Shown here piece after piece: positions 5,943 to 58,525 of a stretch of 64,000 nucleotides of DNA. Positions within the stretch are counted from its first letter, which is position 1; every line of letters starts with the position of its first letter. Position numbers and translations under genes: made by a program. This DNA is from a phage, in sequence record PZ151149.1. The stretch is one strand, 5' to 3'. The notes beneath the pieces were generated by a model. It saw only the letters and a program-made list of their open reading frames with translations. It did not search any database and was not told the DNA's origin.

Positions 5943-5950
5943 TTTAAATG

Positions 5951-5968
5951 GCGGGGAGAAATCCCCGC
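5951..5968 (+). promoter_or_regulatory. GC-rich hairpin between fibre gene and first Gly-rich gene
   Basis: GCGGGGA-gaa-ATCCCCGC stem-loop with no T-run; nearly identical to the stem of the cassette at 43652..43667 on the other strand. Confidence 0.35.
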
Positions 5969-5980
5969 TAAGGATCTTAA

Positions 5981-6277: not shown

Positions 6278-6279
6278 TT

Positions 6280-6585
6280 ATGGCTGGATGGGTTGCGGGA
6301 AGAATGGCTAATGCTATTAGCATTTATGCTAATGGTGGGTGGTTTGGTATCCCTAATGGTTGGGTGGCTGATTCATGCGGTATTGTGTCTGTTCATGCCG
6401 AAGCAGTTGGCGGTGGAGGTGACTTGGACGCCGAATTATATGTAAACGGTACTCTCGAATCAGGTCATCACGCTGGTAATGCCGGAAGTTGGGGAGCTAG
6501 TTCTTTAGTTGGTGTTGGCGCTACTGTCAGTTTTAGCATTGGTAAAGGAAGTTTACATCACTTCCAATTTAGGAGAATGCATTAA
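6280..6585 (+). CDS. glycine-rich small protein, paralog 2 of 3
   Basis: 101 aa; GGAG SD; WFGIPNGW and GGGGD motifs; starts 3 nt after paralog 1 stop. Confidence 0.6.
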   Translation: MAGWVAGRMANAISIYANGGWFGIPNGWVADSCGIVSVHAEAVGGGGDLDAELYVNGTLESGHHAGNAGSWGASSLVGVGATVSFSIGKGSLHHFQFRRMH

Positions 6586-6887
6586 TGGGATATTGGGTGT
6601 ATGGCGTTTTAGACAATAAAGCCGGTAAAGCGAATCAGGGATGGTTTGATATTCCTAACGGGTGGACGCCTGACGCTTTCGGTACGGTTTCATTTGGTGC
6701 TAGTTCTGCTGGTGGTGGCGGTGGTGACTCAGAATTGCTTTTGCATGGCTTTTGTGTGTCTGGAAGTCATAAGGGTCATGATTGGGGACAGATCCATTCT
6801 TGTATTGTGCCGCAGGGAGTAACGATCACGGTAACTACAAACAGGGGTATTTCCCATCTTCGTTATAGACGCTTGAGCAACCGTTAA
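6585..6887 (+). CDS. glycine-rich small protein, paralog 3 of 3
   Basis: 100 aa; AGGAGA SD; WFDIPNGW and GGGGGD motifs; start overlaps paralog 2 stop (TAATG). Confidence 0.6.
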   Translation: MGYWVYGVLDNKAGKANQGWFDIPNGWTPDAFGTVSFGASSAGGGGGDSELLLHGFCVSGSHKGHDWGQIHSCIVPQGVTITVTTNRGISHLRYRRLSNR

Positions 6888-6940
6888 AAAAAGAATTAAG
6901 GAAAACTCCCAGGGAAGGGAACTACTAAGGAGAAACGGCT

Positions 6941-7180
6941 ATGGTCTATAATATCGTCATGGGTGCTTTGTCTAATTTCGGAATGAAACTATTGTCAAAG
7001 TTAATTAGTGAAAAGATGCTCACTAAAATTTTCTTCTATTGCGCTCGTCGTCTTGCGGCTTATACTAATACGCCAATTGATGATCGTTTTGTGGAAGAAC
7101 TTTATAAGGAGTTTAATAAAGATCAGTCAGAAGATAGTAACGAGCAAGATAAACCTAGTGATAGTCAACTACCTAAATAA
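6941..7180 (+). CDS. hypothetical protein with hydrophobic N-terminus
   Basis: 79 aa; AAGGAG SD 7 nt upstream; lies between the Gly-rich genes and holin. Confidence 0.5.
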   Translation: MVYNIVMGALSNFGMKLLSKLISEKMLTKIFFYCARRLAAYTNTPIDDRFVEELYKEFNKDQSEDSNEQDKPSDSQLPK

Positions 7181-10068: not shown

Positions 10069-10869
10069 TTAACCCTTCTTATATTCGCAAACATATTGAG
10101 TACCATAATCATAGCTAATGCGGCCTTTCTCGATGACCTCAAAGCGGATTTCATCGTTTTCCCCTACCCACATTTTGTACTCGTTGAAGTATCCTGCTAC
10201 ATCCGGTTTGCTCATACCAACAACCATATTTTTATATTGTTTGCTGCGTGTCAGATTTGATTTAAACACTTCGCGCTCATCAACATATACGAAAGAAGAC
10301 AATTCACCTTCGGTCATGGTCATTTTCAGCTTGCCGCCCTTGTTACCATAAGTAGAGTTGCCATACAATGGATCTTTGCGGCTGTCTGTTTCAATACCAT
10401 CAATGATTTTCCATGTAAATTTTGCAATGCACTGATAAGTGATAGATCCAGAGATTTTCTCTTCTTTCTTCTGTTCTTCCACCACTTTTTCTTCCTGTTT
10501 CGGTTGTTCTTCTTCAACCTTCGCAGAAGTCTCTGAATCGCTTTCTGACTCGGTTTCTTCTTTAGGTAATACATTCATCAAGTTTTGGATTTGAGCGTTG
10601 TATACAGCCTCCAGTGGCTGAATCTGCCCGATATTGATCATTGTATCACGAACAGTTTTATTCCAGTTGCGTTGCTCTTGTTTCAGAGACGGATCAATCT
10701 TAACAGCTTGAACATATACTTCATGAAGTTTAGAATCCAGTGCGGAGATAGACTCATTAGCACAAATAAACTTCTCTGATTTGGTAGTGGCTTTAGCGCA
10801 ATCAAAGGACGCAGCGTTAGCACCGAAAGCAGTAGCAGAAAGAACGATAGCAGCGATAATGTTTTTCAT
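10069..10869 (-). CDS. secreted protein with DUF1311 / LprI-like N-terminal domain
   Basis: 266 aa; signal peptide MKNIIAAIVLSATAFGANA; FDCAKA...EKFICAN...LDSKL...VY...QRNW pattern typical of DUF1311; acidic E/K linker; separate C-terminal domain. Confidence 0.7.
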   Translation of the reverse strand: MKNIIAAIVLSATAFGANAASFDCAKATTKSEKFICANESISALDSKLHEVYVQAVKIDPSLKQEQRNWNKTVRDTMINIGQIQPLEAVYNAQIQNLMNVLPKEETESESDSETSAKVEEEQPKQEEKVVEEQKKEEKISGSITYQCIAKFTWKIIDGIETDSRKDPLYGNSTYGNKGGKLKMTMTEGELSSFVYVDEREVFKSNLTRSKQYKNMVVGMSKPDVAGYFNEYKMWVGENDEIRFEVIEKGRISYDYGTQYVCEYKKG

Positions 10870-10894: not shown

Positions 10895-10933
10895 ATGGGA
10901 GTATCTTACTACTCCCTTAATCCGGTGTCAACT
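10895..10933 (-). promoter_or_regulatory. early promoter with stem-loop (PeSL-like cassette)
   Basis: Minus strand TTGACA, 17-nt spacer, TAAGAT; inverted repeat GGGAGTA/TACTCCC flanks the -10; ~20 nt upstream of the ATG at 10869. Confidence 0.6.
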
Positions 10934-10938
10934 ACTTT

Positions 10939-11151
10939 TTAATTTTTACCCGCTCGTGCATTAATACGCATTTTCTGCATAGCCATGATCTGGTTTACTG
11001 CTTCTTCTTTACGTTCTTGCGTGATAACGTGACCAGATTCCGCAAACTCTCCAGAGACCTCTTCCACGATCTCGCGAACTTGAGAACGTCCAAAGATGCG
11101 GTTTCCTTCGTAGCTCATAAACTCTGTTACTACTTGCTCGATAGATTTCAT
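10939..11151 (-). CDS. hypothetical protein
   Basis: 70 aa ORF behind a PeSL-like cassette and AGGAGAATCA SD. Confidence 0.5.
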   Translation of the reverse strand: MKSIEQVVTEFMSYEGNRIFGRSQVREIVEEVSGEFAESGHVITQERKEEAVNQIMAMQKMRINARAGKN

Positions 11152-11172
11152 GTGATTCTCCTTTCGTTTGGT

Positions 11173-11211
11173 ATGGGAGTATCTTACTACTCCCGTTTCT
11201 TTACGTCAACT
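11173..11211 (-). promoter_or_regulatory. early promoter with stem-loop (PeSL-like cassette)
   Basis: GTTGAC -35, GGGAGTA...TACTCCC hairpin around the -10, then AGGAGAATCAC SD and ATG. Confidence 0.6.
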
Positions 11212-11216
11212 GGTTT

Positions 11217-11717
11217 TTAGAAATTTTTCGCTTCTTCTTCGGTCATCATAACCGCGCATTCGTGCATAACTTTGAAAACCGGATCAATCATGTCGAATGC
11301 TTCGCGAGACAGTTTACGAGAAGCGATTTTGATTGCTTCAACGTCTTCTACTACAGGAACAAAAACAGTTTTCAGTTCATCGAGCACGGCAGCTTCTTTT
11401 TCATTCAGGAAGATTCCAGCGTCGTACAGTGCAACTTCGATAACATTAACTTTAACCATTTTTATTTCCTCCAGTTCGTTTCGGTATGGGAGTATAATAC
11501 TACCGATGACCTTTGGCGTCAACTGCTTTTTATTATTTTCGTGAAAATTTTTCGTTGCCTCTAGGTTCTTTTCGACCTTCATCCATTCCGCGTATTCTTG
11601 CGCGGCTACTTTCGGATTTAGTCCGTCTTCGTACATTGCTTCAAGTAATTCTTCGTCGGTGGGCTTATACCCTAAATAAGCCTCCACCTGATTTTTCCAA
11701 ATTTTATACCAGTTCAT
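11217..11717 (-). CDS. hypothetical protein; may be two genes, with a second start at 11459
   Basis: Single open frame, but a complete PeSL-like promoter and a GGAGGAAATAAAA-ATG start (11459) lie inside it in frame; first ATG at 11717 has a GGTGA SD. Confidence 0.45.
   Translation of the reverse strand: MNWYKIWKNQVEAYLGYKPTDEELLEAMYEDGLNPKVAAQEYAEWMKVEKNLEATKNFHENNKKQLTPKVIGSIILPYRNELEEIKMVKVNVIEVALYDAGIFLNEKEAAVLDELKTVFVPVVEDVEAIKIASRKLSREAFDMIDPVFKVMHECAVMMTEEEAKNF
11480..11523 (-). promoter_or_regulatory. early promoter with stem-loop, embedded in the ORF
   Basis: TTGACG, 17 nt, TATTAT; stem CGGTA/TACCG; followed by strong SD and ATG at 11459. Confidence 0.55.
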
Positions 11718-11721
11718 ATTA

Positions 11722-11994
11722 TCACCAATCAAGAGCGCGTGTCTCTGCGTCTTCCCATGCTTGATTCATAACAGCATTGAAAACATATTCTAAAGTATCA
11801 TCTTTAGAGAATCCGAAGATTTTAGACGGAATATCTTCAATTGCTACTCCCGCAACTTCTGCATTACGTGCTTGGCAATAATGCAACTCTAAGTTATCGA
11901 GATAGCGACCGCCTAATTTCTCCATATCATCCCAGCATTTCCAGTAACCTACTTTATTTGCAATTGCTAACACTTTGCTGTTTTCGTTGCTCAT
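11722..11994 (-). CDS. hypothetical protein
   Basis: 90 aa; AGGAGAATCAAAG SD; PeSL-like cassette upstream. Confidence 0.5.
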   Translation of the reverse strand: MSNENSKVLAIANKVGYWKCWDDMEKLGGRYLDNLELHYCQARNAEVAGVAIEDIPSKIFGFSKDDTLEYVFNAVMNQAWEDAETRALDW

Positions 11995-29192: not shown

Positions 29193-29828
29193 TCAAGCGA
29201 ATGTAGAAAGCAAATGTTTTGTTTCTTTCAGTTGTCGTTCAAGATCTTTGCGTTTCTCTTTAAGTTGCATTTTAGCATTATTTCGCTGTTTTTCAACATC
29301 TTTATCAATACTCTTATTCCAGTTATCAATATCAGAATAAGTTGGCATACCCAATTCTAGACCTAATGCGGTTGGATACAAGGTAACAGTCCATAAACCG
29401 CTAATCTTCTTAAATAGGTCGGGGTGTAGTGTACTATCTACATCTTCCGGTGTCAACTCTTTTTCTTCTTTCAGTGGTGGGATCTCGTCATATGGTTCCA
29501 GTGCATTTACTTTAATGTCAGATACCTCATCAAAGAATCCGCGTACATCCGCAGGAAATACACAAGCAATTTCCCAACCGTGATCACGCAGAGAAGTAAT
29601 ATTTTTCACTCCCCCACCATGTGTGATGATTGATGTGACATTGCCATCAAGGTCCACCGAATTTACGAGAAATGGCTTATCGTCTGTCAGATCATTATAA
29701 AACTGTGCTTCGGCTGTAGTCATCTCCAGAAACAGATCTCGGATCGGACGACCATCAGGTGCGTTACCTTCCTTGAGAGTATAAAAGCGACTTACGATCC
29801 ATTTTGGCGGTAAAGCATTAGCGATCAT
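29193..29828 (-). CDS. hypothetical protein
   Basis: 211 aa ORF between primase and helicase genes. Confidence 0.5.
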   Translation of the reverse strand: MIANALPPKWIVSRFYTLKEGNAPDGRPIRDLFLEMTTAEAQFYNDLTDDKPFLVNSVDLDGNVTSIITHGGGVKNITSLRDHGWEIACVFPADVRGFFDEVSDIKVNALEPYDEIPPLKEEKELTPEDVDSTLHPDLFKKISGLWTVTLYPTALGLELGMPTYSDIDNWNKSIDKDVEKQRNNAKMQLKEKRKDLERQLKETKHLLSTFA

Positions 29829-29878: not shown

Positions 29879-31291
29879 TTAGAAAGTCATGTTATTTGCT
29901 AGCTCGTCGAGTTTTTCTCTTTTCTCGGCTTGCTGTGCGCTTTGTGGTTTAACTTGTGCATTCTCCTGATCTGCGATCTGGTTTGGTACTTCATACCAAC
30001 GCTGATTGCCTTTCTTCACACCAACGTTAAACCGTGAATAATAGTTCTTATCACCGTAACGAGACTTGATCTGCTTCATGAGTTGGACGCCCATTTTAGC
30101 CAGGTCTTCGGTTTCGATAACACCCAACATAAAGTCGGCAGTAGCCGGAAGACCTGCTGATTCAGCGGTATCACTCATGTTAAGGTCGGAAGCATCCCAA
30201 CCCGCGCGGGTAGTCTGTGCCGCAGTCCAACCAACAACATCCCACTTAACAAAAAATCCTCGCAGTTCTTCCGCAATCGCCTTAACTAGTGTGTAACTAT
30301 TTTCAGAGTATACACGCAAGCGAGACGATGCGCAAATCCCCAGATAGTCAACAATCACAACATCAGGTTTAAACTGTTTCTTGAGTCGCAATTCATTCAT
30401 TAACGCCTCAAAGTGATTGGAGTTTGCGCCACCCGTCGGATACTGCTTGATCATCAATTTTCCAACCGGACGATCTCCGATCTTCTTATTCTTAACACGC
30501 TTCATACGTGCGGAATATTCCGCAAAAGAAACATTACCATTATCCAATTCATCTAATGTAATGTCAAGCAAGTTTGCGTCGATACGTTTGGCTACGACAT
30601 GCTCTGCCATCTCCATTGAGATATACAATACATCATAACCACATTCCATATAATCCGCAGCAAGAGAACACAAGCCCAATGATTTGCCAACGTTTACACC
30701 AGCAAGCAACACATTTAGCGTTTTTCTTTCCGCACCTCCTTTCGTGATTTTATTCAACATCGGCAGCTTAAACGGGATCTTATTCGCCTTAGTCTGATAT
30801 AGCAAGAATCGTTTTTCAAAGTCATTAAACCAGTCATGACCTACATCAGAATCAAACGTAATGGATAGTGCTTCCTGCATGATCTCAGGAATAGCACCCT
30901 CACTCGGCAATTTCTTATTCTGTTTCTCTTTTGGTAGTTGTGCGTTCGCCTGAATCTCTAGCGCCCGTGACATTGCATTATACATAGCGCGGTCACGAAT
31001 AAATTTTTCGGTTTCCTTCATTAACCAATCAAGGTCTTCCGGCGTATTCTCCAGCGAATCGAGAAGAGTTTTAGCCCCTTCATATGTTGTCTGATTGCCT
31101 CTCTCCTTGTCTAAAGCAATCTGTAATGCAGTTGGCGTAGGAATATTGGAATATTCGTCTACGTGCTTTTTAATCAGCTTATAAATCAGTTTTTCTTCGT
31201 CTTCGGTGAAGTAGTCCGCTTTAAGATGAGGCCATACATTCGTAAAGAATGCGCCATTGTAAATCAACTGTGAAAAGATAGTTTTAATCAT
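29879..31291 (-). CDS. 41: replicative DNA helicase (DnaB-like)
   Basis: 470 aa; Walker A LLAGVNVGKSLGL; RecA-like C-terminal domain; order 61-41-uvsX as in T4. Confidence 0.9.
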   Translation of the reverse strand: MIKTIFSQLIYNGAFFTNVWPHLKADYFTEDEEKLIYKLIKKHVDEYSNIPTPTALQIALDKERGNQTTYEGAKTLLDSLENTPEDLDWLMKETEKFIRDRAMYNAMSRALEIQANAQLPKEKQNKKLPSEGAIPEIMQEALSITFDSDVGHDWFNDFEKRFLLYQTKANKIPFKLPMLNKITKGGAERKTLNVLLAGVNVGKSLGLCSLAADYMECGYDVLYISMEMAEHVVAKRIDANLLDITLDELDNGNVSFAEYSARMKRVKNKKIGDRPVGKLMIKQYPTGGANSNHFEALMNELRLKKQFKPDVVIVDYLGICASSRLRVYSENSYTLVKAIAEELRGFFVKWDVVGWTAAQTTRAGWDASDLNMSDTAESAGLPATADFMLGVIETEDLAKMGVQLMKQIKSRYGDKNYYSRFNVGVKKGNQRWYEVPNQIADQENAQVKPQSAQQAEKREKLDELANNMTF

Positions 31292-47795: not shown

Positions 47796-48065
47796 TCAAT
47801 AATCATAAATCGCCCTCAGTTCTTTATAGCCTCCAATGTGCTCGTTGTCAATGAATATCTGGGGGTATACAAACCGGAGGCTCTTTGAGTTTAGCCTCCC
47901 CGCCAGTTCTTCAATCATATCACGGTCGGGAATAATGTCAACCCCGACCTGCTTGAATACTGGTTTAAGTGTATACGGAATACCCAGATCATCCAGTAGC
48001 TTCATTGCACCAATACAACCATAACAATGATAAGCCTCTTTCGGTATGCCGTATATCTCGATCAT
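47796..48065 (-). CDS. glutaredoxin-like protein (NrdH-like)
   Basis: 89 aa; CYGC redox motif near the N-terminus; C-terminal YPQIFID...IGGY glutaredoxin-fold pattern. Confidence 0.7.
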   Translation of the reverse strand: MIEIYGIPKEAYHCYGCIGAMKLLDDLGIPYTLKPVFKQVGVDIIPDRDMIEELAGRLNSKSLRFVYPQIFIDNEHIGGYKELRAIYDY

Positions 48066-48562
48066 TTCTCAGCCTTTAATCTTTCTAGTTCTTCTTCCAG
48101 TTCCTTGATCCGTTGGTCACGTTCAAAGTCACGCTGTAGCTTAGTGGCAAATACTCGCTTAAACTGATTGTAATCATCGATTTTAAACACTTCTTCTTCG
48201 CCATAGCGACGCACAGAAACTTCGTAGTTATTGAAGAATTGTTGCATCATTGCTTCGGATGATAGCTCTGCTGATACCACTTTAAAATATTGATCTTCTG
48301 TAGGCGAAAACCAATTACAAGCATAAAGATAAACCTTTTCATTGTCTGGACACTGGTAAGCCTTACCATCGATTTCAATCACAGAAACATATTCAGGTAT
48401 ACTAGATGAATCAATAGCTAAGACTTTAAACGCACGGTCCCCGATAAACTCGGAGATCACACGATTCGCATCACTGGTTGCAAATGCTTTACGCGCTTGT
48501 TCGTTTTTCCACTGATAGGTCATACCAACAACAAACATATTACCAACCTCGCTCTTTACCAA
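48062..48562 (-). CDS. modular paralog family member A
   Basis: 166 aa; W/Y..GKTY..., ...IEIDG..., ...FF/YFK.V module plus C-terminal coiled coil ELEEELERLKAEK. Confidence 0.55.
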   Translation of the reverse strand: MVKSEVGNMFVVGMTYQWKNEQARKAFATSDANRVISEFIGDRAFKVLAIDSSSIPEYVSVIEIDGKAYQCPDNEKVYLYACNWFSPTEDQYFKVVSAELSSEAMMQQFFNNYEVSVRRYGEEEVFKIDDYNQFKRVFATKLQRDFERDQRIKELEEELERLKAEK

Positions 48563-49364
48563 TCAAAAATTCAACTTCACGACGTTTAATGTCTTCTTGA
48601 AGGTCTTTAATCTTCTGGCGATCTTGCATGATTTCATCCATCTTGTCAAGTGCTGTAATGAAGTCATCGAAACGTTCAAAGGTTTTACCTTCATTTGCTT
48701 CGCCAAATTTAACCATTGTCAGGCCGTAACGACTACTAAACAGACGTTTCAACTGTCCAACGATTTTAGAATCAGTGGTTATAACTTCCAATTCTTCTAC
48801 TTCACGAAAGAATTTTCTATCAGAATCAATAAACCAGCTAGTTCCTTTATGGTCTCTATCTTCGGTTGCGCTCATTAGAGTATGGTCTTTACCATCAATT
48901 TCAATTACATCAATTTGCCCACATGGACTAACATTTTTAACAGTAAAAGGTCTATAATTTATTGCTCGTGCAATAACATAATTAAGGTTAGATACGTTTT
49001 CAGCATAATGACAGAAGTCGGTCATAGCCTTATCATCTTTCCAAGTATAAGTTTTACCAACTTCCCATTTCTGGGGAACTTCTTCAACTTCACGAAAGAA
49101 TTTTCTATCAAATGGACTAAACAAATATGTTGACTTCCAAATGTCTTTTCCTGTAGCAGTTTTCGCCGTATGATAAACACCGTCTAGCTCTATTGCATCA
49201 ATCCAACCGTTACCCTCGATCTCGATGATGGTAAATGGCTTGTCACCAATAGCTGCACTAATATCGCTGTTAAGTGGAGAAAGAACACCTTCTCCGTTAG
49301 TAATAAACTCAGTTTTAGCGTTTTCGTCTTTCCAAGTGTAAGTTTTACCAATTTCCCATTTCAT
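48540..49364 (-). CDS. modular paralog family member B (two tandem modules)
   Basis: 274 aa; two copies of WE.GKTYTWKD...IEIDG...RKFFREVEE, then coiled coil. Confidence 0.55.
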   Translation of the reverse strand: MKWEIGKTYTWKDENAKTEFITNGEGVLSPLNSDISAAIGDKPFTIIEIEGNGWIDAIELDGVYHTAKTATGKDIWKSTYLFSPFDRKFFREVEEVPQKWEVGKTYTWKDDKAMTDFCHYAENVSNLNYVIARAINYRPFTVKNVSPCGQIDVIEIDGKDHTLMSATEDRDHKGTSWFIDSDRKFFREVEELEVITTDSKIVGQLKRLFSSRYGLTMVKFGEANEGKTFERFDDFITALDKMDEIMQDRQKIKDLQEDIKRREVEFLIGKERGW

Positions 49365-49376
49365 AATATATTCCCC

Positions 49377-49877
49377 TTAACCGATTTTATCAAGTTCGTT
49401 TAACGCTTTCTCTGCTTCCTGTATAGCTTGCACCCTTTCCGGCATTTTGTCAAGAAAATCTTTCAACTCTTCAAAACTGGAGATATGACGCAAGGCGTTA
49501 GCACCGATAGCCGCATGTGATTTGCATTCAAAGCGGATTTTATAATTATCCATAGCCAATTTGAGAAGATCAATTAGATCATGTTCATGACCAGGCAATA
49601 AAACTTCTTTGAAGCACGCTCGGTCGGCATCGGAAAACCATATATTATCACCAACATCGATAGAACTAATATAATCCCCTTCGTGATTATAGATTGAACG
49701 TACATTACCCCAACGGTCTACCGTAGCGACAGTAAATGGTTTATCTAGATATGTAAACACACCATCAATATTAGGTTTTTGTTCGTAACGCCAACCATCA
49801 CGCAAAATACGCTTTTCGTCCTCACCAACCAACTTATATGTCTTCCCTTCTTCCCATTTCATAATATCATCTCTCAT
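49377..49877 (-). CDS. modular paralog family member C
   Basis: 166 aa; MKWEEGKTYKL start, same module architecture. Confidence 0.55.
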   Translation of the reverse strand: MRDDIMKWEEGKTYKLVGEDEKRILRDGWRYEQKPNIDGVFTYLDKPFTVATVDRWGNVRSIYNHEGDYISSIDVGDNIWFSDADRACFKEVLLPGHEHDLIDLLKLAMDNYKIRFECKSHAAIGANALRHISSFEELKDFLDKMPERVQAIQEAEKALNELDKIG

Positions 49878-50403
49878 TTTTGATACGTGATTCTAATTGG
49901 ATCATACGGTCGCGCGTTTGCTTATATTCGCGGATAGCACCGATTCGGCTAGGCATACCATCCAGTACGCTCTTAATACCTTCTAGGGTAGTGATTTTAG
50001 CAATGCTATTATGCAATCCTGTCTTATCGATCAACTGAATGTCGTAGGCTTCCATAAGCAGACCCAGACGTTCTAAAGTTAGGTCTTCTTCTTTTTCTTC
50101 CGATTCTGGAATCTTAGGTTCAATAGTAACTTCGGTAAAGAAACGACGCTCACCCGACCAAAACCACACGCCGGAACAGCCAATAGGGGATTCTTTTAAC
50201 GTCATAGAGTCGAAATTACTACCAATAATAGTAATTTCTCTAACATCACCATCATCATCAAGGTCTTCTACCCTAAACGGGCGACCAGCCAACAAGTCAA
50301 CAATACATCTGTTAATAGACGACGAAAATTTAGTCAGTTCGGCTTTCGACGCTTCGCATTCAATCTTGTAAGTTTTACCAACTTCCCATTCCATAATAAT
50401 CAC
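49867..50403 (-). CDS. modular paralog family member D
   Basis: 178 aa; MEWEVGKTYKI start, ...RRFFTEV, C-terminal helical region. Confidence 0.55.
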   Translation of the reverse strand: MIIMEWEVGKTYKIECEASKAELTKFSSSINRCIVDLLAGRPFRVEDLDDDGDVREITIIGSNFDSMTLKESPIGCSGVWFWSGERRFFTEVTIEPKIPESEEKEEDLTLERLGLLMEAYDIQLIDKTGLHNSIAKITTLEGIKSVLDGMPSRIGAIREYKQTRDRMIQLESRIKNER

Positions 50404-50404
50404 C

Positions 50405-50914
50405 TCAAATAATTTTCACTGGAATACTATTAACAATCTTGTATTGTACTTGATTGTCAGACCCCCGCCACGGCTTCTTCGTTGGCATATCTTTAATATA
50501 ACGCCCATCGATGAACATGTCAACTGATTCTACAATTTTTCTTTGCTCATCATTCAATTGGTCAAGGGTATAACCAGACCATAGCCAAATATCTTTATTT
50601 GGCATCCATGATTTTACTTCATCGATGATCCGCTGTACACCCTTTAAATTGCGTTTATACAGTGGATCACCGCCTAAGAATGTTAGCCCCTGAATAAAAT
50701 CAGGTCTAAGCAGATCCAGAATCAATCCCATTGTGTCATCAGTGAATGGTTCCCCGTTCTTAGGATTGAGTAGACTGGAATTAAAGCAACCATCACATGC
50801 GTGTGAACATCCGGTAACGTAAAGGGAGACTCTCACTCCCTCACCGTTAACCATATCACAATCTTTAATATCGGCATAGCGTAGTTTGCCGTATGTATCA
50901 GAACTCATATTCAA
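50405..50914 (-). CDS. nrdG: anaerobic ribonucleotide reductase activating protein (radical SAM)
   Basis: 169 aa; CSHACDGC (CxxxCxxC) cluster motif; downstream of nrdD as in T4. Confidence 0.85.
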   Translation of the reverse strand: MNMSSDTYGKLRYADIKDCDMVNGEGVRVSLYVTGCSHACDGCFNSSLLNPKNGEPFTDDTMGLILDLLRPDFIQGLTFLGGDPLYKRNLKGVQRIIDEVKSWMPNKDIWLWSGYTLDQLNDEQRKIVESVDMFIDGRYIKDMPTKKPWRGSDNQVQYKIVNSIPVKII

Positions 50915-51050
50915 TTACCCCGAACTCGTTTACAATCTGCGCTTTATAGTAACCGCCGCGAGATGCTAATAGATAAGCTGGGCTTAGGTATTCGTATTCA
51001 CGGATTTCTACTTGTGCGTTTTCAGTTTCCCAAATCAGTAAAGTCCACAT
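50898..51050 (-). CDS. hypothetical small protein
   Basis: 50 aa from the ATG at 51050 (AGGAGAATCAAAT SD); the track start lies inside the promoter cassette. Confidence 0.4.
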   Translation of the reverse strand: MWTLLIWETENAQVEIREYEYLSPAYLLASRGGYYKAQIVNEFGVIEYEF

Positions 51051-51089
51051 ATTTGATTCTCCTGTAAAGTTGTATCTCGTCTTGATGAA

Positions 51090-51122
51090 TATAGTATAGG
51101 GGATCTCGCGATCCCCGTCAAG
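51090..51122 (-). promoter_or_regulatory. early promoter with stem-loop (PeSL-like)
   Basis: TTGACG, hairpin GGGGATC-gcga-GATCCCC in the spacer, TATACT. Confidence 0.55.
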
Positions 51123-51125
51123 CAT

Positions 51126-51674
51126 TTATTTTAAATTTTTTCGAATGTATTCAGACCATTCCTTCCCCGTCATTTCGGACCCATTCTGGAAACTGAAATA
51201 TTCATACGGCATCGAGTCAAGATAAAACAGGATCATACATCGCGCCATATAATACCAATCACGATTAAAGTAAACTACGTTATCACCAGTACCATCAACC
51301 CCTTTATCATAACCATCGCGGGTACGGGCTACCCATTGAATAGTATCATTTTTCTCACGGATAGTAACAGGTTCCCAATATCCAGCACATCCAGCATGAC
51401 CACACGAACAAGTAAGGAAGTATTGGCCTTTTGCTTTGTTGTCATCCCATTCACGATGGATTGGTTTGATCTCGTGAAACAGTGCCAAGCAATCATGATT
51501 ATGCAACACTGGCTTACCATCAATCAATGCATGGAATGTATACAAACGACCAGTAGACAAATAGCTATCCTCACGCTCACAGAGTTCAATAGCAATCTTT
51601 TTAGCTTGTTCTTTGTGCCGTTGTGCTTTACGCTTACGGTTTAATGATTTCATATTCACCTCACACATTATCAA
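51126..51674 (-). CDS. hypothetical Cys/His-rich protein
   Basis: 182 aa; CSCGHAGCAGYW segment. Confidence 0.5.
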   Translation of the reverse strand: MIMCEVNMKSLNRKRKAQRHKEQAKKIAIELCEREDSYLSTGRLYTFHALIDGKPVLHNHDCLALFHEIKPIHREWDDNKAKGQYFLTCSCGHAGCAGYWEPVTIREKNDTIQWVARTRDGYDKGVDGTGDNVVYFNRDWYYMARCMILFYLDSMPYEYFSFQNGSEMTGKEWSEYIRKNLK

Positions 51675-52216
51675 AGGTCGCGATATAGCACATTATGAAA
51701 ATGAGAACTTGCATTACCAATATTGTAGATAATAAATTCTTCATCCGGCGCTTGCGCTACAAATTGAGTATGAGCAACCGCTACAACCTTAAAAATACGA
51801 TCCGTAATCTTGTGTTTAATTTCTGCTCCTACTTCCATAGGAACATATTCATGTGTTTCTGTTTCAGTCGCAAAACAGCTATCTTCTTCATAAGCACGAA
51901 CAAATCGATCGCAATCAGTACGCTTAACAAATTCAAGAGTATATAATTCTCGTGAATTGTCGGTATAGACCAATACAGAATTATTCTGATAGCGAATCAC
52001 ATACAGGTTATTATCATCGTCAAGTACACAAAAGCTACGGATTTGTGTTCCTTCGCCTTTACTCCAGCAGATATTAACCACGGTTCCTCTAATAAAAAAA
52101 CTTTCCTTTAAATTAAAACTAGCCAATGTGCTAGCGTGCATTTTAACAACAACACCATCACCAATTTCCAGTTTACGAAGTTTAACTTCTTTGCTCAGTA
52201 CACAAAACATCATCAT
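51671..52216 (-). CDS. hypothetical protein
   Basis: 181 aa; GAGAGGA SD. Confidence 0.5.
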   Translation of the reverse strand: MMMFCVLSKEVKLRKLEIGDGVVVKMHASTLASFNLKESFFIRGTVVNICWSKGEGTQIRSFCVLDDDNNLYVIRYQNNSVLVYTDNSRELYTLEFVKRTDCDRFVRAYEEDSCFATETETHEYVPMEVGAEIKHKITDRIFKVVAVAHTQFVAQAPDEEFIIYNIGNASSHFHNVLYRDL

Positions 52217-52243
52217 GTTGTCCTCTCGTTGTTTTCGATGTGA

Positions 52244-52274
52244 GCATTATACATTAGCTAATCAGGTTGTCAAC
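52244..52274 (-). promoter_or_regulatory. early promoter (sigma70-like)
   Basis: TTGACA, 16 nt, TATAAT on minus strand, just downstream of the nrdD terminator. Confidence 0.5.
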
Positions 52275-52287
52275 ACCCCAAAACGAA

Positions 52288-52312
52288 AAAGCCGACCCTT
52301 TCGGATCGGCTA
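52288..52312 (-). terminator. rho-independent terminator after nrdD
   Basis: Minus strand AGCCGA...TCGGCT hairpin followed by TTTTCGTTTT. Confidence 0.55.
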
Positions 52313-52316
52313 AAAA

Positions 52317-54179
52317 TTACATGTGCTTAACGCGGTTTACCATCTCGGAGTGTTTCCCGTGGTTAAATGGACGCAGATCAACAGATCCAAGATATCCACT
52401 AACGCGACGGATAACATTCATCTTTTCCAGATTGTCGTTGCCGCAATCAGGACAAACAAAACCAGACTCGGTCGCTCTCATTTCCTTATTAGATCCGCAT
52501 ACATGACATACATCAGAAGGAGTATTAACACCGAAGTAGTGCAATTTATCCATTGCATAGTCTACTACAGTTTCAAGACCTTTCAGGTTGTTTTTCATGT
52601 CTGGGAACTCAACATAAGAGATCATGCCACCGGACGCCAGCCAGTGATAATCTTTCTCAAAGTCAATTTTCTCAAATGGAGTGACTTTCCGGTCTACGTC
52701 AAGGTGGAATGAGTTGGTGTACCAGTCTTTATCGGTAGCACCCTTAACAATACCAAATTGCTCTCGGTCCAGTCGATTAAATCGATAGCAAAGGCTCTCG
52801 GCTGGCGTACCGTAAAGACTAAACCCAAGTCCGGTTTCTTCCTTCCATTTGTCAGTATAATGACGCAGGATTTTAAGAATATGTTTACCGTATCGCTGCG
52901 CATCTTCCGAATCAAACGGATGAACACCAAACAGGACGCTCAATACCTCATGTAAACCAATATACCCAAGAGAGATACTAGCGCGACCATCTTTCAACAC
53001 TTCCAAAATTTCATCGTTTTGATGAATACGGAAAAATGCACCTTCTGTATACAGCACCGGAGCAACATTGGCTTTAGCCCCTTTTAAAGCGTCTACGCGA
53101 CTCATGAGCGCATCAAAGCAAATAGGCATACGATTAGCTAGCTCTTGTTCGAATAGCTCAATTCTGCGCATTACAGACGCTTTACCAGCACGACGAGCGG
53201 CAATAAGGGCAATACGCGGAAGATTCAGAGTCACAACACCTAAGTTATTACGTCCGTCTAATACTTCCTCGCCTTTCTCATTATGCCACACACCCAGGAA
53301 GCTACGACAACCCATCGGGCTAACCGGAACACTAGATCCGGTGATACTACGGTTATTCTTCGCAGAGATATAATCAGGGTAAAGACGCTTACTAGAACAT
53401 TCCAATGCAAGTTGCTTAATGTCGTAGTTCGGATCTTCCGGTTTAAGGTTTAATCCTTCTTCTAAGAACATCACCAGCTTAGGAAACACCGGAGTGATAC
53501 CATCTTTACCTAAACCTTTAGTTCGAACTTTCAGGATCGCTTTCTGAATCAGTTTTTCTTCCCAGCTAGTCCCCATACCAAATGTTAAAGTCACAAAAGG
53601 TGTTTGACCGTTGGTGGAGAACAAAGTGTTGATTTCATATTCCAACGCTTGATACCCGTCTAGCGTTTCTTTTTCTGTCTTCTCTTGTGCATAGAGAGTA
53701 TCCGCTTTGATTCCGTAGGTTTCGGCATCAGCAAGGTGTTTATGATATGTTTTCTCAACGTATGGCGCTAAAACCTGATCGATGTTTGCAATTGTGGTCC
53801 CGCCATATTGATGACTTGCCACCTGTGCGATAATTTGAGCGGTTACAGCACAAGCAACGCCGATTGATTTCGGACTTTCGATTTGTGCGCTACCCAATTT
53901 AAAACCATTCTCTAACATGTCTTTGAGATTAACAAGACAGCAGTTAGTAAACGGCATAGCGGGTGCATAATCCATATCATGATAATGAATGTCACCGTCT
54001 ACATGCGCTTTATAGATGTGCTCAGGTAACACGGTTTTAGCAATCTGTTTAGACACAGCACCAGCAATCAGATCTCGACGTGTCGGGAATGTTCGCGCGT
54101 CTTTGTTCGCGTTCTCTTTGCTTACTTCGTTTTCTTTACCCGTTGCGATCTCTGTAATGTCTTTGATTAGTTTTTCCAT
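52317..54179 (-). CDS. nrdD: anaerobic ribonucleoside-triphosphate reductase
   Basis: 620 aa (T4 NrdD 605); C-terminal glycyl-radical region RVSGYLGS and Cys cluster CHVCGS...CPDCG. Confidence 0.9.
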   Translation of the reverse strand: MEKLIKDITEIATGKENEVSKENANKDARTFPTRRDLIAGAVSKQIAKTVLPEHIYKAHVDGDIHYHDMDYAPAMPFTNCCLVNLKDMLENGFKLGSAQIESPKSIGVACAVTAQIIAQVASHQYGGTTIANIDQVLAPYVEKTYHKHLADAETYGIKADTLYAQEKTEKETLDGYQALEYEINTLFSTNGQTPFVTLTFGMGTSWEEKLIQKAILKVRTKGLGKDGITPVFPKLVMFLEEGLNLKPEDPNYDIKQLALECSSKRLYPDYISAKNNRSITGSSVPVSPMGCRSFLGVWHNEKGEEVLDGRNNLGVVTLNLPRIALIAARRAGKASVMRRIELFEQELANRMPICFDALMSRVDALKGAKANVAPVLYTEGAFFRIHQNDEILEVLKDGRASISLGYIGLHEVLSVLFGVHPFDSEDAQRYGKHILKILRHYTDKWKEETGLGFSLYGTPAESLCYRFNRLDREQFGIVKGATDKDWYTNSFHLDVDRKVTPFEKIDFEKDYHWLASGGMISYVEFPDMKNNLKGLETVVDYAMDKLHYFGVNTPSDVCHVCGSNKEMRATESGFVCPDCGNDNLEKMNVIRRVSGYLGSVDLRPFNHGKHSEMVNRVKHM

Positions 54180-54223
54180 TGTATCACCTATGAAAAAGCG
54201 GGATTTCTCCCGCTCGTTGATAG

Positions 54224-54718
54224 TTATTTTACCAGTTCTGCTAATTCTTTTTCCGCCGCTTCCAGTTCAGCTTTCAGTTGTTTGATCTCTTGTCGCTTCT
54301 TATTAGCGGCTTCCTGCTTACTATTTCGGATAATCTGATCTAGATACAACTCCCAATCCTGAATATTTTTGATAATGTAGCCGTCAACATTAATTGGTCG
54401 GAGATTCAGTACAGCTTCCAGTTTAGTTGCAAAAACTTTAATTGCTGGTGTGAAGTATTCATATTCGTTATCTTCAAACCAATAACCTAGACTTGCATTA
54501 TCAATACTAAGACGAAGTTCAAGATCAAGGTCTTTATCTTCGGTGTATAGGTCTTTTACACCCCCCATCGAACCAACAACAACTTTAAAACGAATTTTAT
54601 CAACACCACCAAACACATCAGTAAGGATACCAGCAATTGAGCTATTAGCGCAAGATTGGTCGCTGAATGCGTCAAGGTTTTCTTTAGTTACAGTATACCA
54701 AACATCTTGTTTCCACAT
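54224..54718 (-). CDS. modular paralog family member (divergent)
   Basis: 164 aa; C-terminal coiled coil KQLKAELEAAEKELAEL; PeSL-like cassette upstream. Confidence 0.5.
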   Translation of the reverse strand: MWKQDVWYTVTKENLDAFSDQSCANSSIAGILTDVFGGVDKIRFKVVVGSMGGVKDLYTEDKDLDLELRLSIDNASLGYWFEDNEYEYFTPAIKVFATKLEAVLNLRPINVDGYIIKNIQDWELYLDQIIRNSKQEAANKKRQEIKQLKAELEAAEKELAELVK

Positions 54719-54740
54719 AATATAATCCTCTCGTTGTTAA

Positions 54741-54777
54741 GTGGGAGTATTATAGCATACTCCCTTCGCATGTCAAG
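54741..54777 (-). promoter_or_regulatory. early promoter with stem-loop (PeSL-like)
   Basis: TTGACA, TATAAT inside the loop of GGGAGTA...TACTCCC; then GAGAGGATTATA-ATG. Confidence 0.6.
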
Positions 54778-55951
54778 CACTAACTTTTTTCTTTACTGCT
54801 TTCACCTTCTGGCGAATTGCTCGAATCTCTTCGATCTCTTTTTCAGTCTCTTTAACAATTTCTTTGCGATTCTGAATATCTGTATCGAGATTATCATCAA
54901 GTTTAGGCAGCATGTCAATCAAGAACTTTTTAAAGTCTTTCAGGTTTCGAATAACAGCACCTTCGCCCATTACCGCAACACCCACACCATCCGGCAGATC
55001 ACCAAACAGCTTAACCAGTTCAGACAGATGATCATGATCTTCTAGTGCTTCTTCCGGTTCAGATGGCAGTTCAACAAAGTTATAACGTTCATCATTGCTG
55101 ATCAAGTGATACCAGCAAAGCCCGAAAGATTTCGGTGTATATTCTACACCATCAATTTCAACCGCGTCAACACTTCCATAATCATCTACTTTAGTTACCT
55201 TAAATCCTTGTCCCAGCTTTTGAACAATTTCAACAACATGACTTGATACAGTTTCAGCGGTAAACCAATATGGCAAATTATGCTGATTTGGCTTGTAGCG
55301 TTCACCTACTTTAAATCTCTGACCATCCGCTTGCATAGAATGAAATTGTTGTTTCGTGATTTCCGCGAAGTATTCAAATTCGCCACCATCAAACACACAA
55401 GCCCATTGATCACAAAAACGATCTGCCTTAACAGTTTCACCTTTCGCGGTGATCATGGTAGCTGATCCGTGCAATTCTTCTTCAACTAAAAAGCCATATT
55501 CGACAAAATCAACAAGTTTCATAGCTTCTTTGTGATCTGGATCATGCTCTCCCCAGAATCGCTTAAATTCTTGCAAACCTTCTGGGGTAAACGAATAACA
55601 TTTACCTTTTTCAAAGTAAGTCGGCATTGCATCCTCTTTCTTGTTCATCGCTTCGTATGCCTCTTTTGAGATACGTTTAAAGTATTTGCGCTCATTGTGC
55701 ATAATCATAGTAGACCAATAATAAACGATATCCTCAGCGGAATAAACTACATCTCCAGCTTCAATAGTAATAACATGACCGTGGTCATCTTTTTCTAATA
55801 CTTTAAAGCCCTTTTCTACGATTTCAGCAACCCGAATATGACCACGGCGCGAAGCATCGGTCAGATTAATTGAATAGCGAGAAAAGTCTAGAAACTCATC
55901 TTTACCACCTTCACGGAATGCATAGTAATGACCTTCAAAGAATTTAGCCAT
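54773..55951 (-). CDS. modular paralog family member (three tandem modules)
   Basis: 392 aa; repeated GF.V..VD..G.V..IEIDG...ERKYFKRI modules and C-terminal NLKDFKKFLID coiled-coil region. Confidence 0.55.
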   Translation of the reverse strand: MAKFFEGHYYAFREGGKDEFLDFSRYSINLTDASRRGHIRVAEIVEKGFKVLEKDDHGHVITIEAGDVVYSAEDIVYYWSTMIMHNERKYFKRISKEAYEAMNKKEDAMPTYFEKGKCYSFTPEGLQEFKRFWGEHDPDHKEAMKLVDFVEYGFLVEEELHGSATMITAKGETVKADRFCDQWACVFDGGEFEYFAEITKQQFHSMQADGQRFKVGERYKPNQHNLPYWFTAETVSSHVVEIVQKLGQGFKVTKVDDYGSVDAVEIDGVEYTPKSFGLCWYHLISNDERYNFVELPSEPEEALEDHDHLSELVKLFGDLPDGVGVAVMGEGAVIRNLKDFKKFLIDMLPKLDDNLDTDIQNRKEIVKETEKEIEEIRAIRQKVKAVKKKVSA

Positions 55952-55975
55952 AATATAATCCTCTCGTTGTTTAAA

Positions 55976-56012
55976 TGGGAGTATCTTACTACTCCCGTTT
56001 CATCATGTCAAG
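55976..56012 (-). promoter_or_regulatory. early promoter with stem-loop (PeSL-like)
   Basis: TTGACA, GGGAGTA-gtaaga-TACTCCC, then GAGAGGATTAT SD. Confidence 0.6.
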
Positions 56013-56592
56013 CGTTAAATGACTTTTGGATCTCTTTCAGTTCAGCTACTTTATCGGCGCTGAATTTAGCGTAGGTATCATGTCGAATAATTTCACTTTC
56101 GAGAAAGGTTTCCAGCCGAGATCTATTTTCAATAAGGAACTCTTTCAGGTCTTCCGCGTTCTTGATAAAGATTTTATTGTCAGTAATGTCATCTTCAATC
56201 GCAAAGGAGATCGAGCGAACTTTACCAAACAAGTTAATCAGATCTTCCAGAGATTCTTCTTTCTTAATTGGTTTCATTTCTTCAAACTGCTTTTTAGTGA
56301 TTCGTTTAAAGTATTTGCGCTCGTTTGCAGCAATCAGAACAGATGCACCTTCATACTCATGAGTTTCTACCAGATACACACGCCCCATCGCATCAACAGT
56401 GAGAACTTTAAAGCCGTTACAAAGCACGTCATACAAGAACTTATTATGTTGCGGACATCGTTTGATAAATTCCTCTGCGGACTCAGCATTACGGAAAGTG
56501 TAATAACGACCTCGTTCAAAAACAGCATCAGTTGAAGACTTAGCCGGATACAATTTATACGTTTTCTGTACCATAATATAATCCTCTATCAT
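56008..56592 (-). CDS. modular paralog family member
   Basis: 194 aa; NGFKVLTVD..G.V, ERKYFKRITK, AEDLKEFLIENRS blocks shared with 54773..55951. Confidence 0.55.
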   Translation of the reverse strand: MIEDYIMVQKTYKLYPAKSSTDAVFERGRYYTFRNAESAEEFIKRCPQHNKFLYDVLCNGFKVLTVDAMGRVYLVETHEYEGASVLIAANERKYFKRITKKQFEEMKPIKKEESLEDLINLFGKVRSISFAIEDDITDNKIFIKNAEDLKEFLIENRSRLETFLESEIIRHDTYAKFSADKVAELKEIQKSFNA

Positions 56593-56861
56593 TTCACTAA
56601 TTGAACAGCACGAAACAGAATGCGGTCACACGGAAGAAGCATAAATTCCCAACGCGAATCAAAGTCTTTAGCGGTATATGTTTTCCCATCAACCGAGATT
56701 TCACTTACATAACCAATAGGTGACACTTTAAGAACAGTAAACCCATTCTTGATGACTTCGTAGGTATCTTTCAAACCTTCGTAGTCATCCTCTAGGAAGT
56801 CTTTACGTGCTTGCTCAGATTTAAAAACATAGGCCACACCGGATTTAAACATCTTACGCAT
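56589..56861 (-). CDS. modular paralog family member (single module)
   Basis: 90 aa; KSEQARKDF...NGFTVLKV...SVDGKTY; AAGGAGAATCAACA SD. Confidence 0.5.
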   Translation of the reverse strand: MRKMFKSGVAYVFKSEQARKDFLEDDYEGLKDTYEVIKNGFTVLKVSPIGYVSEISVDGKTYTAKDFDSRWEFMLLPCDRILFRAVQLVK

Positions 56862-56884: not shown

Positions 56885-56922
56885 ATGGGAGTATTTTACT
56901 ACTCCCATTTCATGCTGTCAAC
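56885..56922 (-). promoter_or_regulatory. early promoter with stem-loop (PeSL-like)
   Basis: TTGACA, GGGAGTA...TACTCCC hairpin, then SD. Confidence 0.6.
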
Positions 56923-57422: not shown

Positions 57423-57716
57423 TTAACCATTAATCTTGTTTTTGACTACAAAGGAACGGAACTCATCAAAACCACCAATATAATCACCATTATAGAAAAT
57501 CTGCGGCATGGTGGCAATAACTTCTACCCCTGCGCGATCCTGAATATCGGCAATGATAGAATCAATCTTTACAGGGCGACCGTTTTCGTCCACACCATCA
57601 TTAACCGGAATGTAGATGTAAGGGATCTTACGCGATTCACAAAGTCGCTTTGCATTCTGGCAATACTTACAGTTGTAACCTTCAAAACCAAAAATTTCTA
57701 CCATGTTATACCTCAA
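57423..57716 (-). CDS. nrdC: glutaredoxin/thioredoxin (NrdC-like)
   Basis: 97 aa; CKYCQNAKRL (T4 CVYCDNAKRL) and MPQ.F...IGGFD blocks. Confidence 0.8.
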   Translation of the reverse strand: MRYNMVEIFGFEGYNCKYCQNAKRLCESRKIPYIYIPVNDGVDENGRPVKIDSIIADIQDRAGVEVIATMPQIFYNGDYIGGFDEFRSFVVKNKING

Positions 57717-58525
57717 TCTACGTTAGTTACATAAACTTCTTGCGTATCAGAAGACTTACCACCTGAACGATCTAGGCAATAGGTCTTATTCAACAGGACG
57801 CAGTTTAAATCATTCCGCTTGATAAAGTCAAGAAGATGATCATTTACCTTTCCCTTATGATGTGTGACATTACTGATACCAAACTGAAAACCACGCGCCA
57901 TAATAGATTCTACCCACTGATAGAATTTAATCTCTTCCTCGTCACTCCAGAACTTATTGTATTCCGCAGAAGTGATAAGGTACGGCGGGTCCAAATAAAC
58001 GAAATCACCTGGCAAGATCTCGATCTCGTCATAGCGACCAGACGTAAAACTGATTCGACCGTCTTTGTTTTCTTCCTTAAAATTCAGGACACGCTCTACC
58101 GCGTTTTCGTTAAAAGTCCGGCGACCAAAATTAGCATTAAATTCGCCCTTCCGGTTATGGCGGTTAATGTTGCTAAAACTATGCTGGATCAGAACAAACA
58201 GAGATAGCGGATCTGGATTCTCGTTATACTTCTTACGGAATGCCATGTAAGCATCTTTATCATCACGAGACAAACCATTCTCGGCAATAATCCGCTTGAT
58301 CGTAGAAACCGGATCAGGACACGCATCAATGGCCTTGTAAGCGTCAATTAAACGATGGTCATAGTCATTAGCCAGCACATCACCTTCAACATACAGAGAC
58401 ACGCTCAAGCCACCGCAAAAGGCATCAACAAAGCGGTTGTAGTGCTTAGGGAAATACTTACTAACACCGGGCAATAACTTTTCCTTATTGCCAGTATAGG
58501 GAATTAAACCTAATGCTTTCTTCAT
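57713..58525 (-). CDS. dam: DNA adenine methyltransferase
   Basis: 270 aa (T4 Dam 259); YTGNK, FPK.YNRFVD.FCGGLSVSL, catalytic DPPY, KFWS.EEE blocks. Confidence 0.9.
   Translation of the reverse strand: MKKALGLIPYTGNKEKLLPGVSKYFPKHYNRFVDAFCGGLSVSLYVEGDVLANDYDHRLIDAYKAIDACPDPVSTIKRIIAENGLSRDDKDAYMAFRKKYNENPDPLSLFVLIQHSFSNINRHNRKGEFNANFGRRTFNENAVERVLNFKEENKDGRISFTSGRYDEIEILPGDFVYLDPPYLITSAEYNKFWSDEEEIKFYQWVESIMARGFQFGISNVTHHKGKVNDHLLDFIKRNDLNCVLLNKTYCLDRSGGKSSDTQEVYVTNVD

Follow-up and report, generated by a model that had tools for sequence, protein, structure and literature searches.

We report here that eight minus-strand genes located around nrdG and nrdD in a 64,000-nucleotide stretch of phage DNA (sequence record PZ151149.1, hereafter the window), along with a ninth gene, dc2, found elsewhere in the same stretch, represent, as judged by profile comparisons, an expansion in Krischvirus of the early-protein family that includes T4 GoF and Frd.2. 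The term expansion is relative only to the published count of three family members in T4 (PMC12152347). Each protein is predicted to contain one to three SH3-type barrels of about 90 amino acids (aa); in all but one of the nine, a small alpha/beta unit and a long charged helix come after the barrels. Our analysis establishes family membership, a predicted fold, the context of the promoters, functional constraint and that the barrel is what is exchanged; beyond this, we propose with a probability of about one half that these proteins are early multivalent adaptors acting on mRNA metabolism, through RNA itself or through RNA-handling proteins.

An 8.8-kb stretch of the window shares 97.7% identity with Escherichia phage kvi and 97.5% with RB49, and all 59 matching phage records belong to Krischvirus, the RB49-like T4-type coliphages. 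Eight minus-strand open reading frames (ORFs) coincide exactly with the limits given for the cluster by the original prediction (48062-50403 and 54224-56861), and the interleaving with nrd genes that it described is borne out by the minus-strand order nrdH, g1, g2, g3, g4, nrdG, three unrelated small ORFs, nrdD, g5, g6, g7, g8 and gene 49. The ORF of g1 reaches a TTG at 48562, and the start in annotated orthologues is the ATG at 48538. The ninth gene, g9 or dc2, is flanked by the genes for the gene 41 helicase and the primase, with gene 41 (29879-31291) directly upstream of it. The nine genes are as follows.

48062..48538, minus strand: g1 (RB49p048 orthologue), one barrel (48263-48538) and a C-terminal domain (48065-48262)
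48540..49364, minus strand: g2 (RB49p049 orthologue), barrels m1 (49074-49364) and m2 (48780-49073) and a C-terminal domain (48543-48779)
49377..49862, minus strand: g3 (RB49p050 orthologue), barrel (49578-49862) and a C-terminal domain (49380-49577)
49867..50394, minus strand: g4 (RB49p051 orthologue), barrel (50104-50394) and a C-terminal domain (49870-50103)
54224..54718, minus strand: g5 (RB49p057 orthologue), divergent barrel (54434-54718) and a C-terminal helix domain (54227-54433)
54773..55951, minus strand: g6 (RB49p058, 'frd.2'), tandem barrels (55631-55951, 55325-55630 and 55037-55324) and a C-terminal domain (54776-55036)
56008..56574, minus strand: g7 (RB49p059), basic barrel with an isoelectric point (pI) of 9.3 (56263-56574) and a C-terminal domain (56011-56262)
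56589..56861, minus strand: g8 (RB49p060), barrel only, 90 aa
29193..29828, minus strand: g9 (RB49 'dc2' orthologue), barrel (about 29499-29804) and a long charged C-terminal helix

All-against-all BLASTP connects the eight clustered genes through a unit of about 90 aa, in the alignment of which three aromatic positions (Y, F, F) never vary and which displays the motifs KWEVGKTYTWK, GFKV..VD..G, and ERKYFKRI or DRKFFREV. As a profile will inevitably detect the sequences it was built from, we rebuilt the profile eight times, leaving out one gene each time, and searched it against the 661 ORFs of the window. All eight left-out genes were recovered, with E-values of 5e-17 (g8), 4e-15 (g4), 1e-12 (g7), 2e-11 (g1) and 4e-10 (g3) for single-barrel genes, and of 1e-26 (g2, two domains with independent E-values of about 5e-13 each) and 2e-24 (g6) for multi-unit genes. 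The weakest recovery was that of g5 (1.3e-3), which is tied to the GoF/Frd.2 family solely by a link to phrog_3710 (E-value of 5e-4) and by the alignment of its orthologues with the other barrels (hhalign E-value of 1.8e-4), which spans the full module with the invariant Y, F and F in register. The second barrel of g6 is also weak by itself. These results confirm that a shared-motif module runs through the eight genes, and the outcome named beforehand as refuting it, that the shared motifs would lack significance, is not what the profiles returned. The explanation that the motif likeness arises from chance or composition, without any real family, could draw on pairwise identities between paralog barrels of merely 17-32% and on the weakness of g5 and of the second g6 barrel when taken alone; it is already refuted by the leave-one-gene-out E-values, by independent PHROG profiles that connect the genes, by the hhalign match to GoF and by a common fold predicted at high confidence, and we give it virtually no credence. 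At 17-32% identity, the paralogs themselves are old.

The modules add up to 11 in the eight genes (1+2+1+1 in g1 to g4 and 1+3+1+1 in g5 to g8), fewer than the approximately 14 copies first estimated. The extent of the family was correctly drawn for these eight genes and missed dc2, which lies outside the cluster and was found by profiles that never contained it (E-values of 3e-9 to 4e-6); its layout is likewise a barrel followed by a charged helix, and its inclusion brings the family to nine genes and 12 barrels. The two ORFs of 181-182 aa between nrdG and nrdD were tested as hidden members and rejected. Searching RB49 positions 1-150,000 and the window with the 12-barrel profile returned nothing beyond the nine genes at an E-value ≤ 1. 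A profile that also included GoF and Frd.2 gave a marginal match (E-value of 0.007) to RB49p109 (106 aa; positions 56409-56741 of the RB49 genome, outside the window), which may be a tenth, very divergent member.

Profile alignments identify the module as the N-terminal domain of T4 GoF/Frd.2. The 12-barrel profile aligned with residues 1-91 of T4 GoF at 97% probability (hhalign E-value of 1e-10) and with T4 Frd.2 at 93.8% (E-value of 1.7e-7). PHROGs connects the genes mutually and to families annotated 'goF mRNA metabolism modulator': phrog_622, which contains T4 GoF and Frd.2, matches seven of the eight genes (g1-g4 and g6-g8), phrog_5347 matches g1 over its full length, and phrog_8944 ('goF') matches g6 with an E-value of 3e-214. 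Pfam and NCBIfam contain no match for the module, and the PDB no related sequence. In the RefSeq records of RB49 and GEC-3S, the g6 and g7 orthologues are named 'goF mRNA metabolism modulator' (g6 also 'frd.2') and the other six are each a 'hypothetical protein'. The view that no function or family could be recognized thus does not hold, as the module is the N-terminal domain of a named family to which a 2025 paper is devoted (Kim et al., PMC12152347), and the possibility raised with it, that the genes match an already characterized family, has in part come true, through GoF/Frd.2 and the RefSeq names of g6 and g7.

The resemblance to the T4 proteins has clear boundaries. T4 GoF (ComC-alpha, 141 aa) is a T4-type early protein with an N-terminal barrel, a linker and a C-terminal part, a layout that it shares with the products of the Krischvirus genes, which are probably early too. 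However, it has a single barrel and a short C-terminal part devoid of the long charged helix, whereas Krischvirus has nine genes, two of them with tandem barrels. The full-length Krischvirus profile aligns by hhalign to GoF residues 4-92 only and does not extend into the C-terminal parts of GoF and Frd.2, while phrog_5347 extends to GoF residue 137. T4 goF lies between genes 39 and dexA, a position at which RB49 has no gene. T4 Frd.2 (128 aa) shares the barrel, and RB49 g6 has been named 'frd.2' since 2003; yet Frd.2 has one barrel and adjoins frd in T4, whereas g6 has three barrels and adjoins nrdD, so that g6 is not its positional orthologue. T4 MotB.1 was put in the same structural family by others (PMC12152347); against our barrels it reached an hhalign probability of 23%, it belongs to a separate PHROG (2333), and phmmer found no match to it in RB49.

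Structure prediction for one module, suggested with the original prediction, succeeded for g8, whose barrel was modelled by AlphaFold2 with high confidence (model me1df32b35252; predicted local distance difference test score, pLDDT, of 92.9; predicted template modelling score of 0.83) as a strand, two helices, three strands, a short helix and a final strand. In the g4 model (m44621a618eaf), the barrel occupies residues 8-89 and is followed by a low-confidence linker (95-101) and the C-terminal domain. Between them, the two models display the arrangement that characterizes the family, a five-stranded bent antiparallel barrel, a linker and a separate C-terminal domain. Foldseek returned no significant match for the barrel (FeoA, E-value of 0.09), and the nearest folds are FeoA, the DtxR SH3 domain, the Mib repeat, the Tudor domain of UvrD/PcrA and KOW, mainly protein-binding domains. 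The models identify the barrel as an SH3-type small barrel, in agreement with the closest group reported in PMC12152347. The likeness to FeoA and to the C-terminal SH3-like domain of DtxR/IdeR exists at the fold level only, with 5-16% identity, and does not amount to membership: there is no Pfam/NCBIfam or PDB sequence match, no metal-binding His pattern and no FeoB context, the neighbours being phage nrd genes. All good matches in BFVD are uncharacterized proteins of T4-like and some other large phages, in addition to a 'GoF' and Dc2. Five BFVD matches have neighbouring UniProt accessions (A0A873WLR0, WI85, WCD6, WSP8 and WCD5), which suggests another phage with at least five paralogs.

In Hfq and other LSm proteins, five strands likewise make up a small bent barrel, a connection with RNA has been put forward, and Kim et al. 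call the GoF family 'LSm-like' early proteins (PMC12152347). The paralogs could accordingly be Hfq-like RNA chaperones, true ring-forming LSm barrels that bind RNA directly and differ from one another in RNA preference. We find this doubtful. The combination of an N-terminal helix, Sm1/Sm2 and close similarity to Hfq/Sm was not found; such a helix is missing from the model, in which b1 is followed by two inserted helices. The pI of 10 of the 12 barrels is 4.3-6.0, compared to about 10 for the Hfq core. Furthermore, AlphaFold3 yielded no confident hexamers or multimers for GoF (PMC12152347), and tandem barrels on one chain are at odds with a homo-hexameric ring. A specific LSm assignment is unsupported by our models.

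Outside the barrels, the C-terminal 65-85 residues could be aligned pairwise in g1/g2, g3/g4, g3/g7 and g6/g7, and phrog_5347 (165 positions) covers g1 to g4 from end to end as well as most of the last barrel and the tail of g6 and g7. AlphaFold2 depicts the g4 tail as a helix, two short strands, a helix and a long helix (148-174). The last 40 residues of the tails are 38-55% charged, and a charged terminal helix occurs in eight of the nine proteins, g8 being devoid of any C-terminal part. A coiled coil in the tail is therefore plausible.

At the BLAST level, the barrels are restricted to Krischvirus. An exhaustive profile search of 1.84 billion representatives retrieved 95 clusters at an E-value ≤ 1e-3, most of them 120-270 aa long with an N-terminal barrel; there are two barrels in about a dozen and three in two. 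Long repeat proteins among these clusters match over short pieces only and are probably noise. The search of other phage genomes that had been called for found the family both in these clusters and in the 13 other Krischvirus genomes compared below. A word-indexed search returned 18 close relatives and helped to reveal one-barrel forms of g2, which in metagenomic relatives are either m1-like or m2-like with a chimeric start, and a close m2 allele is missing in five of 59 isolates.

We then compared the window with 13 other Krischvirus genomes, in all of which gene number and order are identical, with g2 broken in one isolate. In that isolate, PTE-Eco09, the g2 orthologue (positions 479-1302 of the PTE-Eco09 segment) is annotated as two coding sequences and contains stop codons across the full span, reflecting a frameshift (pseudogene) or a sequencing error. 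NrdG and NrdD are 99-100% identical across the sample. Divergent alleles are found in the barrels of g1 (56% and 66% aa identity), g3 (42-43% in four genomes, 42% relative to RB49), g4 (47% in FL04), g5 (52-53% in Brandy and Whisky) and, to a lesser degree, the third barrel of g6 (84%), and the core of the second g2 barrel is replaced in FL04. An apparent 51% match to m2 in FL04 turned out to be barrel 1, the true second barrel being the one with the replaced core. The attached C-terminal domains are 85-100% identical (the g3 tail 100% in all 13 genomes), except for the g7 tail, which has a second allele class at 63%. Nucleotide diversity is 0.015-0.018 in nrdG/nrdD, 0.02-0.19 in barrels, with values of up to 0.13-0.19, and 0.02-0.06 in tails, reaching 0.15 in the g7 tail. 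In g1, g2 (m2), g3, g4 and g5, the blocks of low identity match the extent of the barrel and run from just past the conserved N-terminal motif to the FF.EV motif. Conversion between paralogs as the origin of the divergent alleles was ruled out, as each is closest to the barrel of its own locus.

The ratio of nonsynonymous to synonymous substitution rates (dN/dS) is 0.14-0.50 in barrels, 0.00-0.22 in tails and 0.04-0.08 in the nrd genes, and a raised dN is accompanied by a raised dS; in the g3 C-terminal domain, dN is 0 at a dS of 0.13. These sequence comparisons point to old alleles exchanged by homologous recombination under continued purifying selection and not to hypermutation in place. The family had been described as rapidly diversifying: diversification is evident, rapid mutation in place is not. 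A similar organization is known from the PeSL-ORFan cassettes of RB49 and phi1 and from the polymorphic internal-protein loci of the T-even phages, in which a strong early promoter, along with a stem-loop, likewise precedes variable accessory genes, and alleles are likewise exchanged by homologous recombination between conserved flanks. However, PeSL-ORFan loci exchange a whole gene bounded by PeSLs, whereas here the unit is a domain inside a gene, with breakpoints in the conserved barrel ends.

Since the 1970s, GoF has puzzled geneticists, and T4 is rescued on rho mutant hosts by mutations in GoF. With the suppressor mutant GoF(D25Y), an mRNA that carries the gene 41 5′ untranslated region has a longer half-life (PMC12152347), and in a CRISPRi-ART screen frd.2 was the sole T4 fitness gene of unknown function (PMC11879866). 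We favour mRNA metabolism because it is the only process that has been experimentally tied to a family member, namely GoF(D25Y). In the proposed mechanism, the proteins would be produced in the first minutes of infection as multivalent adaptors in which the barrel serves as the variable target-recognition unit and the C-terminal domain as a constant, probably self-associating scaffold; GoF and MotB.1 migrate partly as dimers in non-reducing gels (PMC12152347). The proteins would exert post-transcriptional control of mRNA by binding either RNA or the host proteins that terminate or degrade transcripts (Rho, RNases), different paralogs and alleles having different targets. At the position equivalent to GoF D25, four of the 12 barrels in our alignment (A4) have Tyr or Phe: Tyr in the second barrel of g2 and the first of g6, Phe in the g4 barrel and the second of g6. 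Nine of 12 have Arg at the A83 position, and five of 12 have Lys or Arg at the adjoining G84 position. Because the D25 and A83/G84 columns carry Tyr/Phe and Arg/Lys, the T4 suppressor changes D25Y and G84R would shift GoF towards residues that are normal in the family, which is only a lead given its dependence on the alignment of loops. Separately, dc2 adjoins gene 41, whose mRNA is stabilized by T4 GoF(D25Y), an adjacency that may be coincidental.

Several points weigh against the adaptor proposal. Wild-type GoF and MotB.1 have little effect on reporter RNA, and no family member has a demonstrated wild-type function (PMC12152347). The acidity of 10 of the 12 barrels, unlike Hfq, speaks against general RNA binding. 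Leave-one-out profiles built on the tails alone recovered g3 and g6 only, so that the homology of the tails rests on the pairwise alignments and phrog_5347. The pLDDT of the C-terminal part of g4 is only about 60, and in a crude a/d heptad test against shuffled sequences only g4 (p = 0.004) and g5 (p = 0.022) reached significance; the C-terminal coiled coil initially claimed is thus seen only as a long, highly charged terminal helix, as modelled for g4, with a heptad pattern limited to these two genes and no tail at all in g8. Finally, JSE has also undergone replacement of two neighbouring ORFs that are unrelated to the family, and part of the variability hence belongs to the region and not to the family. 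These ORFs lie between nrdG and nrdD and are divergent alleles with 49% and 72% aa identity. The region is plastic overall, yet barrel cassettes make up most of the blocks.

Two facts are opposed: the sole phenotype of the family concerns mRNA stability and Rho, whereas the barrels are mostly acidic and their nearest folds mostly protein-binding. The latter is compatible with a role in counter-defence or in inhibition of host factors, in which each SH3/Tudor-like barrel would neutralize a variable host protein, for example a toxin, a nuclease or a defence system, without acting directly on RNA, and the allelic barrel cassettes would be left by an arms race. Barrel-limited alleles of 42-66% identity on a constant C-terminal domain, the different barrel numbers among relatives, the location in a plastic region rich in PeSLs and the lack of an RNA effect of wild-type GoF (PMC12152347) all fit such a role. 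However, no target is known, no member matches a described anti-defence protein, dN/dS is below 1 everywhere, and the only experimental phenotype points to mRNA and Rho, so that we regard counter-defence as possible but rather unlikely. In a more speculative reading, which we hold to be improbable, the barrels would be exchangeable cassettes on a constant oligomerizing scaffold, each directed at a different host factor (Rho, an RNase or defence variants), host range would be tuned by single-barrel swaps at the conserved ends, and the tandem-barrel proteins would be intermediates. The early expression assumed by the preferred reading, that of adaptors acting on mRNA metabolism, finds support in the predicted promoters of the cluster.

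A common cassette precedes g5, g6 and g8. It consists of TTGACA, 8-10 nucleotides (nt), GGGAGTA, a loop containing most of the −10 hexamer, TACTCCC, a Shine-Dalgarno sequence and ATG, and its sigma-70 promoter matches the consensus at 12/12 positions for g5, 10/12 for g6 and 11/12 for g8. Five GGGAGTA/TACTCCC stems occur in the window versus zero expected. As predicted from sequence, these cassettes correspond to the PeSL elements known from RB49 and phi1 (Arbiol et al. 2010, PMC2839356), that is, an intergenic sigma-70 consensus early promoter with a stable stem-loop. The statement that several members follow PeSL-like cassettes is accurate for three of the nine genes (g5, g6 and g8). Regulatory features of the cluster are the following.

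54743..54776, minus strand: PeSL before g5, TTGACA-16-TATAAT with the stem around the −10 element; a promoter is annotated here in GEC-3S
55977..56011, minus strand: PeSL before g6, stem and promoter match
56887..56921, minus strand: PeSL before g8, stem and promoter match; a promoter is annotated here in GEC-3S
54192..54214, minus strand: intrinsic-terminator-like stem-loop, AGCGGGA-GAAA-TCCCGCT then T5, closing the g8-g5 block before nrdD; a terminator is annotated at this site in GEC-3S and G2248
51093..51121, minus strand: sigma-70-like promoter upstream of nrdG, matching at 10/12 positions and coinciding with a promoter annotated in GEC-3S

The g4 start lies 10 nt beyond the nrdG stop codon and g4 to g1 succeed nrdG without gaps; because of this tight spacing, the nrdG promoter probably serves g4 to g1 too. 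With predicted sigma-70/PeSL promoters before g5, g6 and g8, the genes look early, as had been anticipated.

Their position beside PeSLs in a plastic region could also indicate that the genes are dispensable cassette cargo, ORFans that are kept by recombination and contribute nothing to infection, in keeping with the normal laboratory growth of T4 goF and motB.1 knock-outs (PMC12152347) and with the broken g2 of one isolate. This explanation appears very unlikely given that the nine genes occur in the same order in 13 further genomes, that dN/dS is far below 1 (with no nonsynonymous change in the g3 C-terminal domain), and that frd.2 scored as a T4 fitness gene (PMC11879866).

Both the family and its barrel were already known, and g6 and g7 already carried the goF name. 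As far as can be checked in the searchable literature, what is new is the membership of the remaining 'hypothetical' genes and of dc2, the presence of nine genes and 12 barrels compared to the three genes reported in T4, the two- and three-barrel proteins, the terminal charged helix in eight of nine proteins, and the exchange of domain-sized barrel alleles on a constant tail; PMC12152347 mentions neither RB49 nor tandem barrels or paralog arrays. Seven 'hypothetical proteins' of about 59 sequenced phages are now tied to a named family. RB49-like phages provide a natural experiment, with nine paralogs, tandem barrels and discrete barrel alleles on an invariant C-terminal domain, and some barrels already bear Tyr/Phe or Arg at the positions altered in T4 suppressor mutants. 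This pattern marks the barrel as the probable specificity element and offers ready-made allele swaps for tests of RNA binding versus host-protein binding. We consider these findings moderately interesting, mainly because they make the old GoF question more testable.

Additional observations concern the surroundings of the cluster. Further PeSL stems at 10897-10916 and 11175-11194 lie upstream of minus-strand ORFs at 10069-10869 (266 aa; its start resembles a signal peptide) and 10939-11151 (70 aa). Directly behind nrdD, at 52246-52311 on the minus strand, lies a strong hairpin that has a T-run and is succeeded by a 12/12 sigma-70 promoter before an unrelated ORF (51671-52216); the stem of this terminator-plus-promoter cassette is unlike that of the three family PeSLs. 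In JSE, nrdD (positions 4544-7166 of the JSE segment) is present as two coding sequences, split by a homing-endonuclease gene. In GEC-3S, an HNH homing endonuclease (positions 11149-11804 of the GEC-3S segment) replaces the dam methyltransferase gene that is found in the window (57713-58525) and in RB49.

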